The notes under the pieces were generated by a model. It was not told the DNA's origin and ran no database searches. It worked only from the letters and a program-made list of their open reading frames with translations. A DNA stretch of 36,533 nucleotides from the UHGV virus genome UHGV-0135234. One strand, given 5' to 3'. This DNA is from a virus. Below are positions 3,630-32,000 of the stretch, piece by piece. Every line of letters starts with the position of its first letter. Position 1 is the first letter of the stretch. The position numbers were made by a program, and so were the translations under genes.

Positions 3630-3644
3630 TTACCGTTGAGGTAA
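3630..3644. promoter_or_regulatory. operator palindrome TTACC-N5-GGTAA (OL-proximal)
   Basis: ttaccgttgaggtaa; overlaps predicted -10/+1 of leftward promoter. Confidence 0.6.
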
Positions 3645-3763: not shown

Positions 3764-4348
3764 TTATTGTTTATTTTTTTCGTTCTGGTTGATGACAAAT
3801 TCAATGTAACTTTCGATCTTTGCCTTCTCTGTTTCAGGTAACAATGCGTAGCGCGAGCGGTCATAGTTGATAGTCGCGGGGTCGTGCGGGTGAATCAGTA
3901 ATTCATATCCGTGACGCCCAAATGCGGATGCAACATTCTCCAGGGTGGAAATGGAAACGCTGACCTCATTGTTTAACAGGCGGCTGATTGTTACCTGGGC
4001 GACGCCGGATGCGCGGTGAAGTTTTCCCTGCGTTGAAAGGTCGCGGCTTTCGCTCATCCAGCGTTCCAGGTTGTGAGCCGCCAGTTGACCAATGTCGCTT
4101 GGTCCGACAGGCTGAAAACCTTCCTGAGAAAGCGAGCGATCGATATCAAGCCAGTTACGGGGTTTATTGGCGGCAGCTTCAATTTTTCGCGCAACCTGGT
4201 CGCCGATAACCTTCTTGCCAAGAGCCCAGCGGTTTACCAGATTTGCCTGAGTTCCAAGTTTTTCAGCCATCCGCGTCTGAACACCATTGAATTCACGGTC
4301 GATCAAGTCGTTGAGATTTTGCCTGCGGACGTCCTGGATACTTTTCAT
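3764..4348 (-). CDS. phage immunity repressor (CI-like, two HTH domains, no S24 peptidase domain)
   Basis: 194 aa; N-terminal HTH (QTRMAEKLGTQANLVNRWALGKK) and second HTH (RASGVAQVTISRLLNNEVSVSISTLENVA); no LexA-like autocleavage domain; divergent from Cro-like gene with operators between. Confidence 0.75.
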   Translation of the reverse strand: MKSIQDVRRQNLNDLIDREFNGVQTRMAEKLGTQANLVNRWALGKKVIGDQVARKIEAAANKPRNWLDIDRSLSQEGFQPVGPSDIGQLAAHNLERWMSESRDLSTQGKLHRASGVAQVTISRLLNNEVSVSISTLENVASAFGRHGYELLIHPHDPATINYDRSRYALLPETEKAKIESYIEFVINQNEKNKQ

Positions 4349-6768: not shown

Positions 6769-6797
6769 TTGATTTCGTGTCTTATGTGGTTTTTAAT
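6769..6797 (+). promoter_or_regulatory. putative internal promoter for nin-like operon
   Basis: -35 TTGATT (6769..6774), 17-bp spacer, -10 TTTAAT (6792..6797), directly followed by operator. Confidence 0.4.
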
Positions 6798-6811
6798 TAC
6801 CTCAGAGGTAA
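6797..6811. promoter_or_regulatory. operator palindrome TTACC-N5-GGTAA overlapping SD of downstream gene
   Basis: ttacctcagaggtaa; ends 4 nt before ATG 6815. Confidence 0.55.
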
Positions 6812-8890: not shown

Positions 8891-9081
8891 TGGATGTAAA
8901 AGAGAAGGTTTTGCAGGTGATGCGTTCCCGGGCAGCCCTGCAAGATAAAGCTCTCGGCGGGGAATATCCATTCAGGATGGCAACCTGGAATTTGCGGTTG
9001 GCAATGGAGAAGGAATTTCCTGATGAAGAATGGCGTTCGGCAGATTTGCGCAAAATTCTTATGGAGCTGGCTAAAGACTGA
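8887..9081 (+). CDS. hypothetical phage protein
   Basis: 64 aa; ATGA-coupled to upstream gene; GGAGG SD. Confidence 0.5.
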   Translation: MMDVKEKVLQVMRSRAALQDKALGGEYPFRMATWNLRLAMEKEFPDEEWRSADLRKILMELAKD

Positions 9082-9146
9082 GCAGTATCCAAAGATACCT
9101 ATGCCAGCCGGATTGGTCAGGCGGTATGGAGACTGGAGGTGCGGTA

Positions 9147-9428
9147 ATGGCTAACCTGCAACTTGCAGTCAAAGGTGAATACTTCGATGCCATGATTCGC
9201 GGAGAGAAAACGGAAGAGTATCGCTTGTGTAATGACTACTGGAATAAGCGCCTCGTTAACCGTAAGTATGACCGCCTGATTATCACAAAGGGATATCCGA
9301 AGCGCGACGATTCCAGTCGTAGAATAGACGCCCCGTATGAAGGGTATGAAATCAAGACAATCACACATCCGCACTTCGGCGATAAACCGGTAAATGTGTT
9401 CGCGATAAAGGTAAATATTGATGGCTAA
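9147..9428 (+). CDS. ASCH-domain protein
   Basis: ORF 9126..9428; ATG at 9147 with GGAGGT SD; LAVKGEYFDAMIRGEKTEEYR matches ASCH hallmark. Confidence 0.6.
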   Translation: MANLQLAVKGEYFDAMIRGEKTEEYRLCNDYWNKRLVNRKYDRLIITKGYPKRDDSSRRIDAPYEGYEIKTITHPHFGDKPVNVFAIKVNIDG

Positions 9429-9759
9429 ATCAGCAGCAGAGCGCAAAGCCGCTCAGAGAGCCAGACAAGCTGCATCTGGTGTGCGTAAGCTGGAAATTGT
9501 GCTTGATGCTCAGGAAATTGAAATGCTGGAGCGTAACTGTGCCACGCGTCGCCCCGGGCGTGCGCCTTACGAATTTGGTGAGTATATAGCGTTATTGATC
9601 CGCCAGGATGATGCACGCGTGCACGGGCGTATAAAATCGATCAGCAGAAAACGTTGCGGTAAGTGCGGCGAGAGAGTTCCAGTTAATTCATGCCCGTGTA
9701 ATGGTGACTCGCAATGCTGGGTGACTAAAGGCTGGCATGAAACGAAATTAATAGTGTGA
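9421..9759 (+). CDS. Cys-rich small protein (possible zinc-binding regulator)
   Basis: 112 aa; C-terminal CGKCGERVPVNSCPCNG; last gene before packaging operon. Confidence 0.5.
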   Translation: MAKSAAERKAAQRARQAASGVRKLEIVLDAQEIEMLERNCATRRPGRAPYEFGEYIALLIRQDDARVHGRIKSISRKRCGKCGERVPVNSCPCNGDSQCWVTKGWHETKLIV

Positions 9760-9808
9760 CATGTTACGAGTAGATTATGCATGATGAATTTGATGGGTTT
9801 TGAATACT

Positions 9809-9834
9809 GCCGCCAACTATGGCGGCTTTATTTT
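9809..9834 (+). terminator. rho-independent terminator upstream of terS
   Basis: gccgcc-aactat-ggcggc followed by TTTATTTT. Confidence 0.65.
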
Positions 9835-9845
9835 GCATGGTACTA

Positions 9846-9860
9846 TTACCACAACGGTAA
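9846..9860. promoter_or_regulatory. operator palindrome TTACC-N5-GGTAA upstream of terS
   Basis: ttaccacaacggtaa; preceded by TACTAT -10-like hexamer; direct repeat CTATTACCAC at 9843 and 9861. Confidence 0.55.
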
Positions 9861-9877
9861 CTATTACCACGGTGGTT

Positions 9878-10474
9878 ATGATGCCTGCTGAACCTAAAAC
9901 CTATAAACGCAAATCAACGCAATTTAAGCCGCTCACAGCAATGCAGGAGGCTTATTGCCAGTCATACATCAAAACGCCTGAAAACCAGACTCAGGCAGCG
10001 ATTAACGCAGGATTCTCCCCAAATACAGCGGCAGTTAAAGCCAGTGTCATGATGCGCGATGAACGCATTCAAAAACGGATTGCCGAGTTGATGGAGGAGC
10101 GCAACAAACGAATGCGCGTCAGTGCTGATTACGTTCTCATGCGCCTGGTGGAGATCGACCAGATGGACGTGATCGACATCCTCAACGACGATGGTAGCCT
10201 TAAGCCAATCCGCGAGTGGCCGAAAATCTGGCGCACTACGCTTAGTGGCTTTGATCTGTCATCGACCATCATGAACATGAACGAGGATTCGATAGAGACA
10301 ATCCTCAAAAAAATTAAATGGCCTGACAAGGTGAAGAACCTCGAACTGATTGGTAAGCACGTCGACGTCAACGCATTCAAAGAACGCCTGGATGTTAATG
10401 TGAATGTGACAATTGCTGATCGCATAGCGGCAGCCAGGAAGAGACTGAAAGAACGTCAGGATGGCAATCAGTGA
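9878..10474 (+). CDS. terminase small subunit
   Basis: ORF 9800..10474; ATG at 9878 or 9881 (upstream part contains the terminator); pattern resembles small-terminase family (QEAYCQSYIKTPENQTQAAINAGFSPNTAAVKASVMMRDERIQKRI). Confidence 0.75.
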   Translation: MMPAEPKTYKRKSTQFKPLTAMQEAYCQSYIKTPENQTQAAINAGFSPNTAAVKASVMMRDERIQKRIAELMEERNKRMRVSADYVLMRLVEIDQMDVIDILNDDGSLKPIREWPKIWRTTLSGFDLSSTIMNMNEDSIETILKKIKWPDKVKNLELIGKHVDVNAFKERLDVNVNVTIADRIAAARKRLKERQDGNQ

Positions 10475-11946
10475 CAGATACAGCGTTATCTCCTGAAGAG
10501 CAGTTAATCGAGGATATTGCAGGGTTCACTCACGATCCGCTTGGCTATGCCCTCTATGCGTTCCCGTGGGGGGAAGAGGGTACTGAACTGGCACATGCCA
10601 CCGGTCCACGTCAGTGGCAGGCCGATGCGTTCCGAGAGATACGTGATCACCTGCAGAATCCAGAGACGCGATATCAGCCGCTTATGCTGGCACGCGCTTC
10701 TGGTCACGGTATTGGTAAATCCGCATTCATCTCAATGCTGATCAACTGGGGCATGTCCACTTGCGAGGATTGTAAGGTCGTGGTGACCGCCAACACCGAC
10801 AACCAGCTACGAACGAAGACCTGGCCGGAAATTATCAAGTGGTCGAACCTTGCCATCACGAAAGACTGGTTTACCTGTACCGCTACCGCGATGTACAGCA
10901 ATGATCCTGGGCACGACAAGCGGTGGCGAGCTGACGCAATCCCCTGGTCTGAGCACAACACTGAGGCATTCGCCGGACTACACAACGAGCGCAAACGCAT
11001 CATCGTGGTTTTCGACGAAGCATCCAACATTGCCGATCTGGTGTGGGAGGTAGCAGAGGGTGCGCTGACGGACGAAGACACCGAAATCATCTGGGTGGCG
11101 TTCGGGAACCCGACGCGTAATACCGGGCGTTTCCGCGAATGTTTCCGCAAATATAAACACCGCTGGAAGTGTGCGCAGATTGACAGCCGGACGGTGGAAG
11201 GCACTAACAAACAGCAGTTGCAGAAATGGGTTGATGACTACGGGGAAGACAGCGACTTCGTTAAAATCCGTGTGCGCGGCATATTCCCTGATGCATCTGA
11301 ATTGCAGTTTATCCCTACCGGTCTTACTGATGAGGCAATGAAACGGGTGGTAACCGCTGCGCAGGTGGCGCATGCTCCGGTGATAATCGGTGTTGACCCG
11401 GCATATTCAGGCGTTGATGACGCGGTGATATACCTGCGGCAGGGGCTACACAGTAAGGTGCTGTGGACTGGCAACAAGACTACCGACGATCTGATTATGG
11501 CGAAGCGTATCGCTGACTTTGAAGACCAGTATCAGGCTGACGCGGTGTTCATCGACTTCGGTTACGGAACCGGTTTGAAGTCAATCGGTGATGGCTGGGG
11601 GCGTACATGGCAACTTGTTCCGTTCGGCGGTGCGTCCACTGACCCGCAGATGCTTAACAAGCGTGGGGAGATGTTCAACTCATGTAAGACATGGCTGAGG
11701 CTGGGCGGCATGCTGGATGACCAGGAAACTGCAGACGACCTGTCGGCGGCAGAGTACAAAGTTCGCGTGGACGGTAAAATCGTTATCGAACCGAAGGAGG
11801 ATATCAAGGAGCGGCTTGGGCGTTCGCCGGGTAAAGGCGATGCGCTACTGCTGACGTTTGCGTTCCCTGTGTCGAAGCGTCTGCGAATTCCCGGGCAGCA
11901 GAACCAGCAAGGCAAGGCCATCACAGATTACGATCCCTATGCTTAA
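10471..11946 (+). CDS. terminase large subunit
   Basis: 491 aa; GTG start overlapping terS stop (GTGA); Walker A-like ASGHGIGKS; position and size. Confidence 0.85.
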   Translation: MTDTALSPEEQLIEDIAGFTHDPLGYALYAFPWGEEGTELAHATGPRQWQADAFREIRDHLQNPETRYQPLMLARASGHGIGKSAFISMLINWGMSTCEDCKVVVTANTDNQLRTKTWPEIIKWSNLAITKDWFTCTATAMYSNDPGHDKRWRADAIPWSEHNTEAFAGLHNERKRIIVVFDEASNIADLVWEVAEGALTDEDTEIIWVAFGNPTRNTGRFRECFRKYKHRWKCAQIDSRTVEGTNKQQLQKWVDDYGEDSDFVKIRVRGIFPDASELQFIPTGLTDEAMKRVVTAAQVAHAPVIIGVDPAYSGVDDAVIYLRQGLHSKVLWTGNKTTDDLIMAKRIADFEDQYQADAVFIDFGYGTGLKSIGDGWGRTWQLVPFGGASTDPQMLNKRGEMFNSCKTWLRLGGMLDDQETADDLSAAEYKVRVDGKIVIEPKEDIKERLGRSPGKGDALLLTFAFPVSKRLRIPGQQNQQGKAITDYDPYA

Positions 11947-11997
11947 TCCGCTGGTGGGGATAATGTCGTTGATATCCTCTGGTGAGGATAAAACAAA

Positions 11998-12023
11998 GCC
12001 AGCTCATAGGCTGGCTGTTTGTG
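11998..12023. terminator. bidirectional terminator between convergent terL and Gp49-like gene
   Basis: gccagc-tcatag-gctggc hairpin; T-rich on minus side (TTTGTTTT). Confidence 0.5.
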
Positions 12024-12032
12024 ACATGTCAC
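12021..12032. repeat. 12-bp palindrome GTGACATGTCAC (copy 1)
   Basis: Perfect palindrome abutting terminator and stop of Gp49-like gene; identical copy at 29532..29543; near copy at 9756..9767. Confidence 0.6.
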
Positions 12033-12036
12033 GGTG

Positions 12037-12417
12037 TTATTGCTCGCTTAGCTTCTGCTTCAGCAAGTAACCTTCGAGCATCCAGATTTTGTTTACAGCA
12101 TTCTGCCGGGCAATCTTCCGACCAATTTCTGCATCAAAGTTTTCCGGGCTTGCACAGGCGCTCTCTCCGGTGACGGTGAAGCCATTCTTCAGCACCAGTA
12201 CGCAGAAAGTGAGCAACTTCAATGGTGATAAATCACGATCGCCTTCTTCTGGTTTTTCCCTGCCACAATATTCGTTGCTGGAAATGGCACCATTACGTCC
12301 ATCATAAGCAGTAAAGTAATGCTCGCTTTTAATCACGTCTTCGATGTGCTGCGGAGTGATTCTCGGAGCGGTTTTGCCTTTCTCAACGATTTCTTTTTCG
12401 ATTTGCTGGTCGTTCAT
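12037..12417 (-). CDS. Gp49-like phage protein (unknown function)
   Basis: 126 aa; AAGGTG SD; reverse-oriented inside late region; conserved block LTFCVLVLKNGFTVTGESACASPENFDAEIGRKIA. Confidence 0.55.
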   Translation of the reverse strand: MNDQQIEKEIVEKGKTAPRITPQHIEDVIKSEHYFTAYDGRNGAISSNEYCGREKPEEGDRDLSPLKLLTFCVLVLKNGFTVTGESACASPENFDAEIGRKIARQNAVNKIWMLEGYLLKQKLSEQ

Positions 12418-12615: not shown

Positions 12616-12692
12616 TGGCGTGGCATGCAGGATTCGAACCTGCGACCAACCGCTTAGAAGGCGGTTGCTCTGTCCAACTGAGCTAATGCCAC
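12616..12692 (-). tRNA. tRNA-Arg (anticodon UCU)
   Basis: 77 nt GTGGCATTAGCTCAGTTGGACAGAGCAACCGCCTTCTAAGCGGTTGGTCGCAGGTTCGAATCCTGCATGCCACGCCA; 7-bp acceptor stem, D-arm GCTC/GAGC, anticodon loop CTTCTAA, T-loop TTCGAAT, encoded CCA. Confidence 0.9.
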
Positions 12693-13036: not shown

Positions 13037-13126
13037 TAATTTGTGCGTTAAATGTCAACTATCTACGATAAATAAATCATATGTGGTTAAATTGGTAATA
13101 ATTTAATTGCGTACGGAGTCATTGAT

Positions 13127-29531: not shown

Positions 29532-29543
29532 GTGACATGTCAC
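29532..29543. repeat. 12-bp palindrome GTGACATGTCAC (copy 2)
   Basis: Identical to 12021..12032; abuts terminator 29545..29568. Confidence 0.6.
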
Positions 29544-30461: not shown

Positions 30462-30476
30462 TTACCTTTAAGGTAA
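30462..30476. promoter_or_regulatory. operator palindrome TTACC-N5-GGTAA between promoter and gene A
   Basis: ttacctttaaggtaa immediately upstream of SD. Confidence 0.55.
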
Positions 30477-30504
30477 TAGTACGCTATTCACCCACAGTCT
30501 GCAA
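30476..30504 (-). promoter_or_regulatory. putative promoter of cargo operon
   Basis: Minus strand -35 TTGCAG (30499..30504), 17 bp, -10 TACTAT (30476..30481), then operator. Confidence 0.45.
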
Positions 30505-30548: not shown

Positions 30549-31235
30549 TCAGAAGAACCCAGCCTTGTCGTTGATGTACTCCGCGTGGGTCTGGATATCA
30601 CGCAGGCATTTGCTCACACCAACAATGTAGCAGAACATGGTGGTCAGCTCCGCCGCCGCGCCCGATACGTCGTGCCCGTCTTCCTGTAACTGGTTCAGCA
30701 GATTCATCAGCAGTGAGTTCTCCGTCAGGCCGAGAACACCAGACGGAGAATGAATCAGGCTGCGGTAGCCGGGCTTCAGTGGGGCACTGTAGGTTTTGTT
30801 CTCTATCTTCATTGCCTGCATCACTGCTGATGCTGTGGCGTTGGCTACCTGGTCGGCAACTATCTTTATGCGTTCTTCCTGCGGGAGCGAGTTTTTAATG
30901 TAACTTCCGGTGCGGCGGATCTGAGGAAGAACCTCACCTGTAACCCATTTACGAAAGCGGTAGGGGATAGTGCCTGGTGTCACTGCGTCGCGGCAGCGGA
31001 GGATCAGTGTGTAGAGGCCTGACTCGTTGATAATATTGGTTTCACCTTGACGGCCTAAGTTAAATTTAGCCCTTTCATCATCATCAAGAGATTTTATTGA
31101 CATAGTGGGGTTTGTCAGTTGAAGAGCTTTAATAACGTCTTTGGCAACAAACCAAGGATTTCCATCAATAACAATGGCTCGAATGGTGGCTTCTGATTCA
31201 AAATGAAAAACAGATGGGGTTACGTTAGCAGTCAT
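30549..31235 (-). CDS. Bro-N domain antirepressor-like protein
   Basis: ORF 30549..31388; ATG at 31235 (MTANVTPSVFHFESEATIRAIVIDGNPWFVAKDVIKALQL... classic Bro-N N-terminus); AAGGTGA SD; upstream extension is a structured leader. Confidence 0.8.
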   Translation of the reverse strand: MTANVTPSVFHFESEATIRAIVIDGNPWFVAKDVIKALQLTNPTMSIKSLDDDERAKFNLGRQGETNIINESGLYTLILRCRDAVTPGTIPYRFRKWVTGEVLPQIRRTGSYIKNSLPQEERIKIVADQVANATASAVMQAMKIENKTYSAPLKPGYRSLIHSPSGVLGLTENSLLMNLLNQLQEDGHDVSGAAAELTTMFCYIVGVSKCLRDIQTHAEYINDKAGFF

Positions 31236-31388
31236 AGTGATCACCTTTGTAGTTAGGTTAATCACCACTACCGACGCCAATCGGTTGGTGGTGAACTGTG
31301 CAGGGTTGGCGTAACCGGCTACAAAGGACCCGGCGCACCTTTCGGTGCCCCCACACAGCCCACCATAGAATAGGTGCGCTTTACACAT

Positions 31389-31408
31389 AAAAAAACCGCT
31401 TATGCGGC
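31389..31408 (-). terminator. intrinsic terminator/attenuator in Bro leader
   Basis: Minus strand gccgc-ataa-gcggu followed by seven U. Confidence 0.45.
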
Positions 31409-31501
31409 ATATGTGCCTCTGTAGTAACCCGGGACGCCAATCCCGGCACTGGATTTTGCCAGTGCCCGATTACTATGGCACAAGAGGAGTGCGATGTAAA
31501 T

Positions 31502-31516
31502 TTACCGAAAAGGTAA
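31502..31516. promoter_or_regulatory. operator palindrome TTACC-N5-GGTAA
   Basis: ttaccgaaaaggtaa directly downstream of putative Bro promoter. Confidence 0.55.
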
Positions 31517-31805: not shown

Positions 31806-31826
31806 CTTATCTTCTCCATGCAATAA

Positions 31827-31842
31827 CTGTATATTTATACAG
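31827..31842. promoter_or_regulatory. LexA box (SOS operator) CTGTATATTTATACAG
   Basis: Perfect CTGT-N8-ACAG with AT-rich spacer; 10 nt upstream of SD of the 85-aa gene. Confidence 0.75.
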
Positions 31843-31881
31843 TATCAAATAATTTGTTTGCTATCCAGCACGTTTTGCAAA

Positions 31882-31896: not shown

Positions 31897-32000
31897 TATC
31901 TATTCGTATTTACAGTCTTTCTATCCATATGTGGTTTTTCAGGTAATAGAATAACCAGATATGCGGCGCAACGGGTGCTGCGACTATCTGGAGATTTAAC

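Follow-up and report, generated by a model that had tools for sequence, protein, structure and literature searches.

The window (the whole 36,533-nucleotide stretch of viral DNA analyzed here, UHGV virus genome UHGV-0135234) probably has, at positions 9809-9880, the junction at which the early-right operon of a prophage gives way to its packaging operon. The boundary as we read it would consist of an intrinsic terminator followed by an extended -10 promoter for the terminase small subunit gene, terS, that is gated by the prophage repressor, Rep. That a terminator and a repressor operator precede the packaging operon is no new finding for the genus Uetakevirus, since the GenBank record of Salmonella phage epsilon15 annotates both, the operator as a "repressor" site, at positions homologous to those here. 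To this extent the arrangement is a re-derivation from raw sequence of the content of the epsilon15 record and changes little. Small additions are made here in the evidence for the extended -10 element, the nature of a direct "repeat" upstream of terS, a corrected terS start, a slot for accessory genes, and a lead concerning a short palindrome.

The junction of the early-right and packaging operons

The window is, judged by sequence identity, a Uetakevirus prophage of the phiV10/epsilon15 type. Over positions 9000-12000 it is 97% identical to vB_EcoP_PAS61, to O157 typing phages 9 and 10, and to phiV10, and ~82% identical to epsilon15, all members of this genus. The 500 bases around 9809-9880 are present in 637 of 5426 complete Escherichia coli genomes, and the prophage type is thus a common and well sampled one. 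The features that bear on the boundary are as follows.

3764-4348, minus strand: Rep, the prophage repressor predicted to bind O1 and O2 (match to PDB 5D50)
9421-9759, plus strand: basic, Cys-rich protein of 112 amino acids, last gene of the early-right operon (open reading frame; homologue of epsilon15 gp49)
9756-9767, either strand: palindrome GTGACATGTTAC, which differs from GTGACATGTCAC at a single base and overlaps the 112-amino acid protein gene at its stop codon
9777-9803, plus strand: 27-nucleotide remnant, ATGCATGATGAATTTGATGGGTTTTGA, of a 70-amino acid accessory gene that is intact in relatives
9809-9834, plus strand: intrinsic terminator with a 7-pair stem, the loop ACTA, and then TTTATTTT (terminator scan and folding)
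9838-9846, plus strand: extended -10 element TGgTACTAT, the proposed promoter P_terS (conservation; predicted promoter)
9846-9860, either strand: O1, a predicted and exact Rep operator, TTACC-acaac-GGTAA, or TTACCacaacGGTAA, homologous to epsilon15 12-27
9864-9878, either strand: O2, a candidate weaker operator-like site, TTACC-acggt-GGTtA, or TTACCacggtGGTtA, with one mismatch
9881-10474, plus strand: terS, terminase small subunit (Pfam Terminase_2, 1e-29)
10471-11946, plus strand: terL (terminase large subunit), which overlaps terS at its end and is annotated as terL in related records
3630, 3692, 4404, 4452, 6735, 6797, 9846, 9864, 13022, 30462, 31502, and 31882: operator sites found by motif search

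All coordinates given in the original prediction for the features within 9809-9877 hold in the sequence. The epsilon15 record (AY150271.2) begins just 11 bases ahead of the counterpart of O1. It annotates a protein_bind feature, "repressor, lysogeny," at 12-27, with terS following at 47-643, and a stem_loop feature, "rho-independent terminator," at 39646-39672, at the extreme end of the record and after gp49. Further repressor sites are annotated before the portal operon, the tailspike gene, and the RuvC-like gene, as well as beside the repressor gene.

The start of terS determines whether the boundary is seen as non-coding. The sequence ATGATG at 9878-9883 offers in-frame ATG codons at 9878 and 9881, of which the latter is homologous to the starts in epsilon15 and SPC32H. 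PGAP and the phiV10 record place the start at TTG 9800. Relatives carry insertions and deletions of 1-2 nucleotides upstream of the terS ATG, showing that this stretch does not code for protein. From this comparison the TTG 9800 start is probably wrong and the homologous ATG at 9881 the better choice. The distinction matters in that the TTG start hides the terminator, the promoter, and the operators inside a "CDS."

A strong intrinsic terminator had been predicted at 9809-9834, and its GC-rich stem, T-tract, and folding energy bear this out. The hairpin arms are GCCGCCA (9809-9815) and TGGCGGC (9820-9826), and TTTATTTTG follows at 9827-9835. The terminator scan lists the hairpin with seven pairs, six of them G-C, 50 nucleotides past the stop at 9759. 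As RNA, the terminator folds with -16.4 kcal/mol (z = -3.46), a value equaled by none of 200 shuffled sequences. A search of Rfam over 9700-9900 gave no match. The hairpin is homologous to the terminator annotated at 39646-39672 in epsilon15 and is kept in epsilon15, SPC32H, PAT1, KPC3phi13.3, and four further relatives (L089 and L091-L093). Where relatives have it, the stem is either identical or altered by an A-U to G-U change, with no compensatory double changes. The structure is therefore backed by conservation and not by covariation.

Among the relatives compared, the hairpin is retained wherever the 112-amino acid protein gene, or a gene of the KPC3/L089 type, precedes terS. BUCT554, L088, and L090 instead have a LexA-box promoter and a umuD-like gene upstream of terS and are without the hairpin. 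Some relatives therefore manage without the terminator, and insulation of the late operon is not essential. The earlier suggestion that the late operon is insulated from early transcription thus stands insofar as a strong terminator follows the last early-right gene, but the terminator is not universal, being absent where the umuD-like insert is present.

The DNA between the 112-amino acid protein gene and the hairpin varies in its content. E. coli prophages of one type (L008) have a full 70-amino acid open reading frame, ending ...YDEFDGL and a stop codon, between the palindrome and the hairpin, and KPC3phi13.3 and L089 have another open reading frame between the 112-amino acid protein gene and the hairpin. 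The umuD-like gene of BUCT554, L088, and L090, with its LexA-box promoter, occupies this stretch as well. Judged by these relatives, the stretch is an insertion slot for accessory genes. We infer that the hairpin is the terminator that closes both the early-right operon and this slot.

A candidate promoter fused to a repressor operator

The hexamer TACTAT (9841-9846) starts six bases past the T-tract and is preceded by TG at 9838-9839. Its final T, at 9846, is also the first T of the TTACC half-site of O1, and 9846-9860 reads TTACCACAACGGTAA. The original prediction of a -10-like TACTAT fused to an operator palindrome at 9846-9860 is confirmed in the sequence; the operator motif recurs across the genome, and the epsilon15 site is annotated.

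Conservation of this region was assessed upstream of terS at 91 loci, comprising 80 viral contigs, six genomes of other species, and five phage records (epsilon15, SPC32H, PAT1, BUCT554, and KPC3phi13.3). The 80 viral contigs all encode a 100% identical TerS and are informative on the pattern of substitution, not on diversity. The 91 loci yield 25 distinct upstream sequences. All 25 agree in the TG, TA, and TAT of TGnTA(C/G/T)TAT and in the left half-site of O1, and the right half-site differs in a single variant (AGTAA in L090). TGgTACTAT has the defining bases of the TGnTAnnnT motif, and these do not change among the 25 variants. Free variation is seen in the base between TG and TA, in the third base of the hexamer, in both spacers, and in the DNA that separates the operators. 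Close E. coli variants differ at 11 of the 46 positions from 9835 to 9880, and all 11 lie outside the 16 that make up the TG, the -10, and the half-sites of O1 (P = 0.004). This pattern is a clear indication that the -10 and O1 are under purifying selection.

The conservation extends to foreign surroundings. TGnTA(C/G/T)TAT is retained in L005, L088, and L090 despite unrelated upstream DNA, and in BUCT554, L088, and L090, where a different gene lies upstream, similarity to the window starts exactly at the TG. TACTA is not common to the flanks of the other operator sites in the window, which sets its conservation apart from that of the operator. The register of -10 and operator seen at O1 recurs on the minus strand at 30462-30485 (TACTAT-TACC, then AGGAGG and ATG), and a more distant terS lineage (L102) has AATAAT-TACC in that register.

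No recognizable -35 was found for P_terS; the hexamer at 17-nucleotide spacing is TATGGC, a poor match lying within the 3' arm of the hairpin. Relatives with other upstream DNA are likewise without a recognizable -35, and the promoter scan of the window did not list the site. Promoters of the extended -10 class do not require a recognizable -35. The TGnTAnnnT motif is common by chance, and so it is on its conservation that we base the case for a promoter. We infer a minimal extended -10 promoter that would be occluded by Rep. Because the last base of the -10 is the first base of O1, the predicted start, at ~9853, would lie inside O1. A second promoter at the second copy of the repeat described below (AACTAT) was considered and rejected; a common variant reads AACAAT there.

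O1 belongs to a set of sites spread over the window. TTACC-N5-GGTAA with at most one mismatch occurs 12 times, compared with 0.67 occurrences expected, and none of 100 shuffled sequences reached 12. Ten of the 12 sites lie within the 7% of the window that is not covered by the map of open reading frames. The two terS operators are inside the open reading frame mechanically extended from TTG 9800 and are non-coding only with the ATG 9881 start. Sites at 3630, 3692, 4404, and 4452 flank rep, and others precede the RuvC-like gene, terS, the portal operon, a gene for a 193-amino acid protein, the ant region, and the tailspike gene. The sites have the same syntenic arrangement in epsilon15 and SPC32H and in the prophages of six further species.

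Rep matches the SPC32H repressor (PDB 5D50) with E = 4e-42 over residues 1-190. Its identity to the Salmonella proteins is ~42% overall, 53% in the N-terminal 72 residues, and 37-38% in the C-terminal part, and the sequence NLVNRW is unchanged in the conserved N-terminal helix-turn-helix segment. TTACC and GGTAA are kept in every relative found, even where Rep is only ~41-45% identical. The conserved N terminus of Rep fits these shared operator half-sites. According to a secondary account, SPC32H Rep binds to palindromic sites in tetrameric form, and the antirepressor breaks up the tetramer (PMC9638917). In the 98% identical phage ZX5, overexpression of the repressor lowered endolysin and holin transcripts by ~99.97-99.99% (PMC9782041). 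A literature search for the operator motif together with epsilon15 found no papers.

In the mechanism we favor, the hairpin and T-tract would terminate the transcripts of the early-right promoter and of any inserted accessory gene. Directly behind the hairpin, TGgTACTAT would act as a minimal promoter without a -35. In a lysogen, Rep bound to O1 would shut this promoter, and Rep may also sit on the weaker O2, over the ribosome-binding site. Once Rep is inactivated, in this family by an SOS-controlled antirepressor, P_terS, a promoter of their own, would drive terS and terL. Since the same motif lies before other lytic units, Rep would repress directly at many dispersed sites, after the manner of phage P1, and not through a single Q-type switch. 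A point against the proposal is that all lytic promoters would be released together, which leaves the timing of late expression without explanation.

The direct repeat predicted at 9843 and 9861 is indeed present, but it is not an element in its own right. The 10-mer originally reported, CTATTACCAC, is really an 11-mer, ACTATTACCAC, at 9842-9852 and 9860-9870. Exactly two copies of the 11-mer exist in the window, and matches with up to two mismatches are not enriched (11 found, 5.8 expected). The second, one-mismatch copy of the operator, at 9864-9878, reads TTACCACGGTGGTTA, and its right half holds the Shine-Dalgarno sequence GGTGG (9871-9875). This O2 palindrome explains the second copy of the repeat, which is the left half of O2 together with its A/T flank. 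The "repeat" thus consists of the left halves of two adjacent operators.

O2 is the less constant of the two sites. The epsilon15 version, TTACTtcggtGGTAA, departs from the motif in its left half, that of the window in its right half, and that of SPC32H has two mismatches. In relatives the left half is TTACT or TTGCT and the right half GGTAA. The spacing of O1 and O2 is 18, 19, or 20 nucleotides, and O2 is absent in KPC3phi13.3. These comparisons make O2 a weak auxiliary site at best, and its right half may be kept simply as a ribosome-binding site.

TerS proteins often recognize DNA within or near their own gene, and the repeats lie directly upstream of terS, in direct orientation and ~18 nucleotides apart, as might be expected of a packaging recognition (pac) site bound by TerS. 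We nevertheless consider a pac site here highly improbable. The repeat unit is a half-site of a palindrome that recurs at ten other non-coding places, including both flanks of rep, and the exact 11-mer is found nowhere else in the window. The length of the repeat, its spacing, and its second copy all vary; the two copies share only TATTAC in epsilon15, and KPC3phi13.3 has lost copy 2. Among the relatives the repeats near terS are not conserved as such; only the operator half-sites are. The stretch might nevertheless serve as operator and pac site at once.

The position of O2, over the ribosome-binding site and well downstream of any start point, raises a different possibility, namely that Rep bound to O1 and O2 is a roadblock to RNA polymerase arriving from upstream and that terS, having no promoter of its own, is expressed by read-through. 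The poor -35 would agree with this, as would a similar operator directly before the ATG of the RuvC-like gene (operator 6797-6811, ATG 6815). In the relatives with the umuD-like insert no terminator lies between the LexA-box promoter and terS, and a roadblock would be useful there. A roadblock leaves unexplained, however, why TG-n-TA-n-TAT upstream of O1 is invariant in all variants and in unrelated contexts. Most relatives, moreover, already have a strong terminator 12 nucleotides upstream, and the operators here are symmetric, whereas the stoperators of mycobacteriophage L5 reportedly work in a single orientation only. On this balance we regard the roadblock as unlikely and prefer a Rep-gated promoter.

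The Cys-rich protein and the palindrome at its stop codon

The 112-amino acid protein encoded just upstream had been put forward as a candidate late regulator. It matches the PHROG family phrog_536 ("transcriptional regulator") at 1.5e-54. Neither a Pfam family nor a sequence match in the PDB was found for it, and a PDB profile search returned only a chance-level match, to ribosomal protein S20 (E = 2.8). An AF2 model of the protein has a pLDDT of 58, too low for a fold search. The epsilon15 record notes a similarity of gp49 to N15 gp46. All 120 homologues among the matches listed carry uninformative source names, such as "hypothetical protein." In Pectobacterium phage ZF40 the homologue is encoded in the mid-early region, and in the lambda-like phage Chlobot it is a fragment adjoining a umuD-like gene; each of these phages has its own Q-like gene. 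Several relatives have another gene between the 112-amino acid protein gene and terS. With no Pfam or PDB match, with homologues in mid-early or accessory positions, and with genes intervening before terS, a role as late regulator is not supported, and nothing in these comparisons ties the protein specifically to terS.

A PHROG scan of the early-right open reading frames tested identified a Cro-like repressor, a replication initiator and loader, a Holliday-junction resolvase, and several families whose function is unknown. RefSeq is the source of the ASCH domain label that the open reading frame at 9126-9428 bears. No Q- or N-like family was present in the PHROG and Pfam matches of the early-right open reading frames scanned. 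The only promoter-like match between the 112-amino acid protein gene and the hairpin is GTGACA-18-CATGAT at 9756-9785. We rejected it as a chance match that is accounted for by the palindrome, which supplies the -35, and by the 27-nucleotide gene remnant, which contains the -10, and it is not conserved in epsilon15 or L092. As this match is not conserved as a promoter, the lambda-like arrangement of a promoter, a short RNA, and a terminator is absent.

The palindrome at the stop codon recurs at the ends of operons. In its perfect form, which is present in nearly all relatives, it is the 12-bp sequence GTGACATGTCAC with the arms GTGAC and GTCAC. The window has two exact copies, one at 12021-12032, between the stop of a minus-strand gp66-like gene and its terminator, and one at 29532-29543, three bases beyond the final structural gene, with a terminator following at once. 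In the sense of transcription, the palindrome is just upstream of the terminators at 9809, 12016-11997 (minus strand), and ~29544. Epsilon15 and SPC32H, whose flanking sequences differ, have exact GTGACATGTCAC at the three syntenic locations, as do six other species. In ZF40 and Chlobot it stands right after their homologues of the 112-amino acid protein gene.

A set of 46 diverse viral contigs was recovered with the ZF40 homologue protein. In about 37 of the 46, GTGACATGTCAC or a variant with the GTGAC and GTCAC arms lies 0-10 nucleotides past the stop of the homologous gene, and most have one or two further copies. GTGAC-NN-GTCAC was found in 95 distinct contexts in ~1 Mb of loci, compared with ~1 expected by chance. 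A strict terminator-like hairpin is present within 75 nucleotides in 33 of the 95 contexts, as against 4% of random positions, and many copies are not near terminators. The palindrome is not annotated in AY150271.2, and a literature search for the 12-mer found no paper.

The simplest reading of this linkage is that GTGACATGTCAC is a predicted binding site for the 112-amino acid protein encoded beside it. An alternative is a module-boundary sequence, given that each of the three copies also adjoins a variable region. It is possible, and we suggest it only tentatively, that the protein and the palindrome form an undescribed pair of regulator and site that may modulate termination or read-through, including at the entry to the packaging operon. 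The palindrome was also considered as an activator site for P_terS. Its center is ~91 nucleotides upstream of the predicted start in the window and ~73 nucleotides upstream in epsilon15, a difference that does not amount to whole helical turns, and for this reason the activator reading was rejected.

A further proposal would be that the 112-amino acid protein or another early product causes read-through into the late genes in the manner of Q, with GTGACATGTCAC as the loading site. The palindrome abuts the stop of the 112-amino acid protein gene and recurs just upstream of three terminators, its contexts are enriched in nearby hairpins as given above, and gene and palindrome travel together in unrelated phages. 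We think such antitermination quite unlikely all the same. The early-right open reading frames scanned contain no Q- or N-like family, and the sole promoter-like match between gene and terminator is not conserved. Palindrome and hairpin are separated by anywhere between 0 and 41 nucleotides, and by more where genes are inserted, and many copies are not near terminators. ZF40 and Chlobot carry the homologue in addition to their own Q-like genes, and a conserved promoter and operator downstream of the terminator would be redundant. A Rep-gated promoter for terS continues to be our preferred reading of the boundary. The association of GTGACATGTCAC with terminators and with the Cys-rich protein gene is new as far as we found, and cheap to test.

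Comparison with other phages

The closest parallel is epsilon15, which has, as does the window, a gp49-like gene, the palindrome, a hairpin GCCGCC(A/G)ACTATGGCGGC with a T-tract, TGnTACTAT, TTACC-N5-GGTAA, a weaker second site, and terS. A difference from epsilon15 is the 27-nucleotide gene remnant, which in the window lengthens the spacer before the hairpin. The regulon of the window resembles those of epsilon15 and SPC32H in having the same operator half-sites at syntenic places and a homologous Rep. In contrast to SPC32H, with its small Ant, the antirepressor of the window is a 279-amino acid Bro-N/Ant protein encoded behind C4 and isrK RNAs.

Phage P1 has 22 C1 operators, which are asymmetric 17-mers, and its late genes need the activator Lpa, whose gene is under C1 control (PMC8546580). 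The proposed action of Rep would resemble that of P1 C1, with one prophage repressor acting directly at many lytic promoters, and the C4 antisense RNA at the antirepressor locus of the window is a further likeness, to P1 immI. Unlike those of P1, the operators in the window are symmetric 15-mers and stand directly before the packaging and structural operons. The order of a gene for a small Cys-containing protein at the end of the early-right operon, a terminator, and then the late genes is similar to that of the late control region of lambda. Unlike lambda, the window has no Q homologue among the early-right open reading frames scanned and no conserved promoter between that gene and the terminator, and its predicted promoter, covered by an operator, is downstream of the terminator.

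Brown et al. in 1997 are said to have found the gp71 stoperators of mycobacteriophage L5 to be asymmetric, active in one orientation, and numerous. The repressor sites in the window are like these stoperators in that many occupy short gaps between genes, in early as well as late operons, and some stand well downstream of promoters. They differ in being only about a dozen, where L5 has far more, in being symmetric, and in the fusion of O1 to a conserved -10.

The comparison of 91 loci supports direct control of the terminase operon by the prophage repressor in these phages, a control that would keep terminase unmade in lysogens.

The terS leader and upstream sequences

The start of the terminase small subunit gene terS is annotated as TTG 9800 in RefSeq PGAP (NZ_CM142789.1), phiV10, and PAT1, with the consequence that the terminator hairpin, the proposed promoter, and the operators, all of which lie within 9800-9880, are annotated as coding. 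In epsilon15 and SPC32H the terS start is the ATG homologous to 9881. Relatives differ by 1-2 nt indels within 9800-9880, which shows that this stretch is non-coding.

The stop codon of the Cys-rich 112-aa gene upstream is adjoined by a 12-bp palindrome. Further copies are found near terminators, one where a gp66-like gene ends and one where the structural operon ends, and the palindrome also occurs at three positions in each of L003, L007, and L094.

Palindrome GTGACATGTCAC (12 bp)
Window: 9756-9767, 12021-12032, 29532-29543
L003: 39612, 2142, 19517
L007: 38629, 2145, 19634
L094: 14944, 5125, 7622

Unrelated phages have the palindrome together with the Cys-rich gene: ZF40, Chlobot, and, among 46 viral contigs, about 37. 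The epsilon15 record carries no annotation at the palindrome, and a literature search for the 12-mer found no paper containing the sequence.

The interval from the palindrome to the terminator is a slot for the insertion of accessory genes.

Accessory-gene insertion slot
Window: 9768-9808
L008 (relative's locus): about 790-1000
L005 (relative's locus): 760-1170
L006 (relative's locus): 760-1100

The slot is occupied in relatives by a 70-aa ORF, by a LexA-box promoter with a umuD-like gene, or by another ORF. A 27-nt remnant of the 70-aa ORF is left in the window at 9777-9803.

terL and the portal operon are separated by a tRNA gene on the opposite strand, which is neighbored by an N4 gp49/Sf6 gp66-family gene (12037-12417).

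12616-12692, minus: tRNA-Arg (anticodon TCT)

Rep operator spacing and an associated box

Several pairs of operators for the prophage repressor Rep, in the window and in relatives, have a start-to-start distance of exactly 62 bp.

Operator pairs 62 bp apart
Window: 3630/3692, 6735/6797
L003: 32555/32617, 35907/35969

This distance is about six helical turns and suggests that tetrameric Rep brings about looping or pairing. The spacing of the pair at terS is only 18 bp.

A conserved box, located 46-58 nt 3' of one Rep operator, is followed after 5 nt by a second operator half-site and a -10-like hexamer.

Box TATGTGGTT(W)
Window: 6783-6792, 13080-13089, 31928-31937

The box precedes the RuvC-like gene, the portal operon, and the tailspike gene, and is absent at terS. 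Its conservation extends to epsilon15, SPC32H, and a further six species, and it may be a -30 box of activator-dependent promoters.

The antirepressor control region

Immediately upstream of the antirepressor gene are a C4 antisense RNA and isrK, both detected with Rfam; a LexA box is close by, as are the Rep operators that start at 31502 and 31882.

30549-31388, minus: Bro-N/Ant antirepressor gene
31284-31370, minus: C4 antisense RNA
31389-31465, minus: isrK
31825-31844: LexA box AACTGTATATTTATACAGTA

The antirepressor control region of this epsilon15-type phage is similar to immI of P1.
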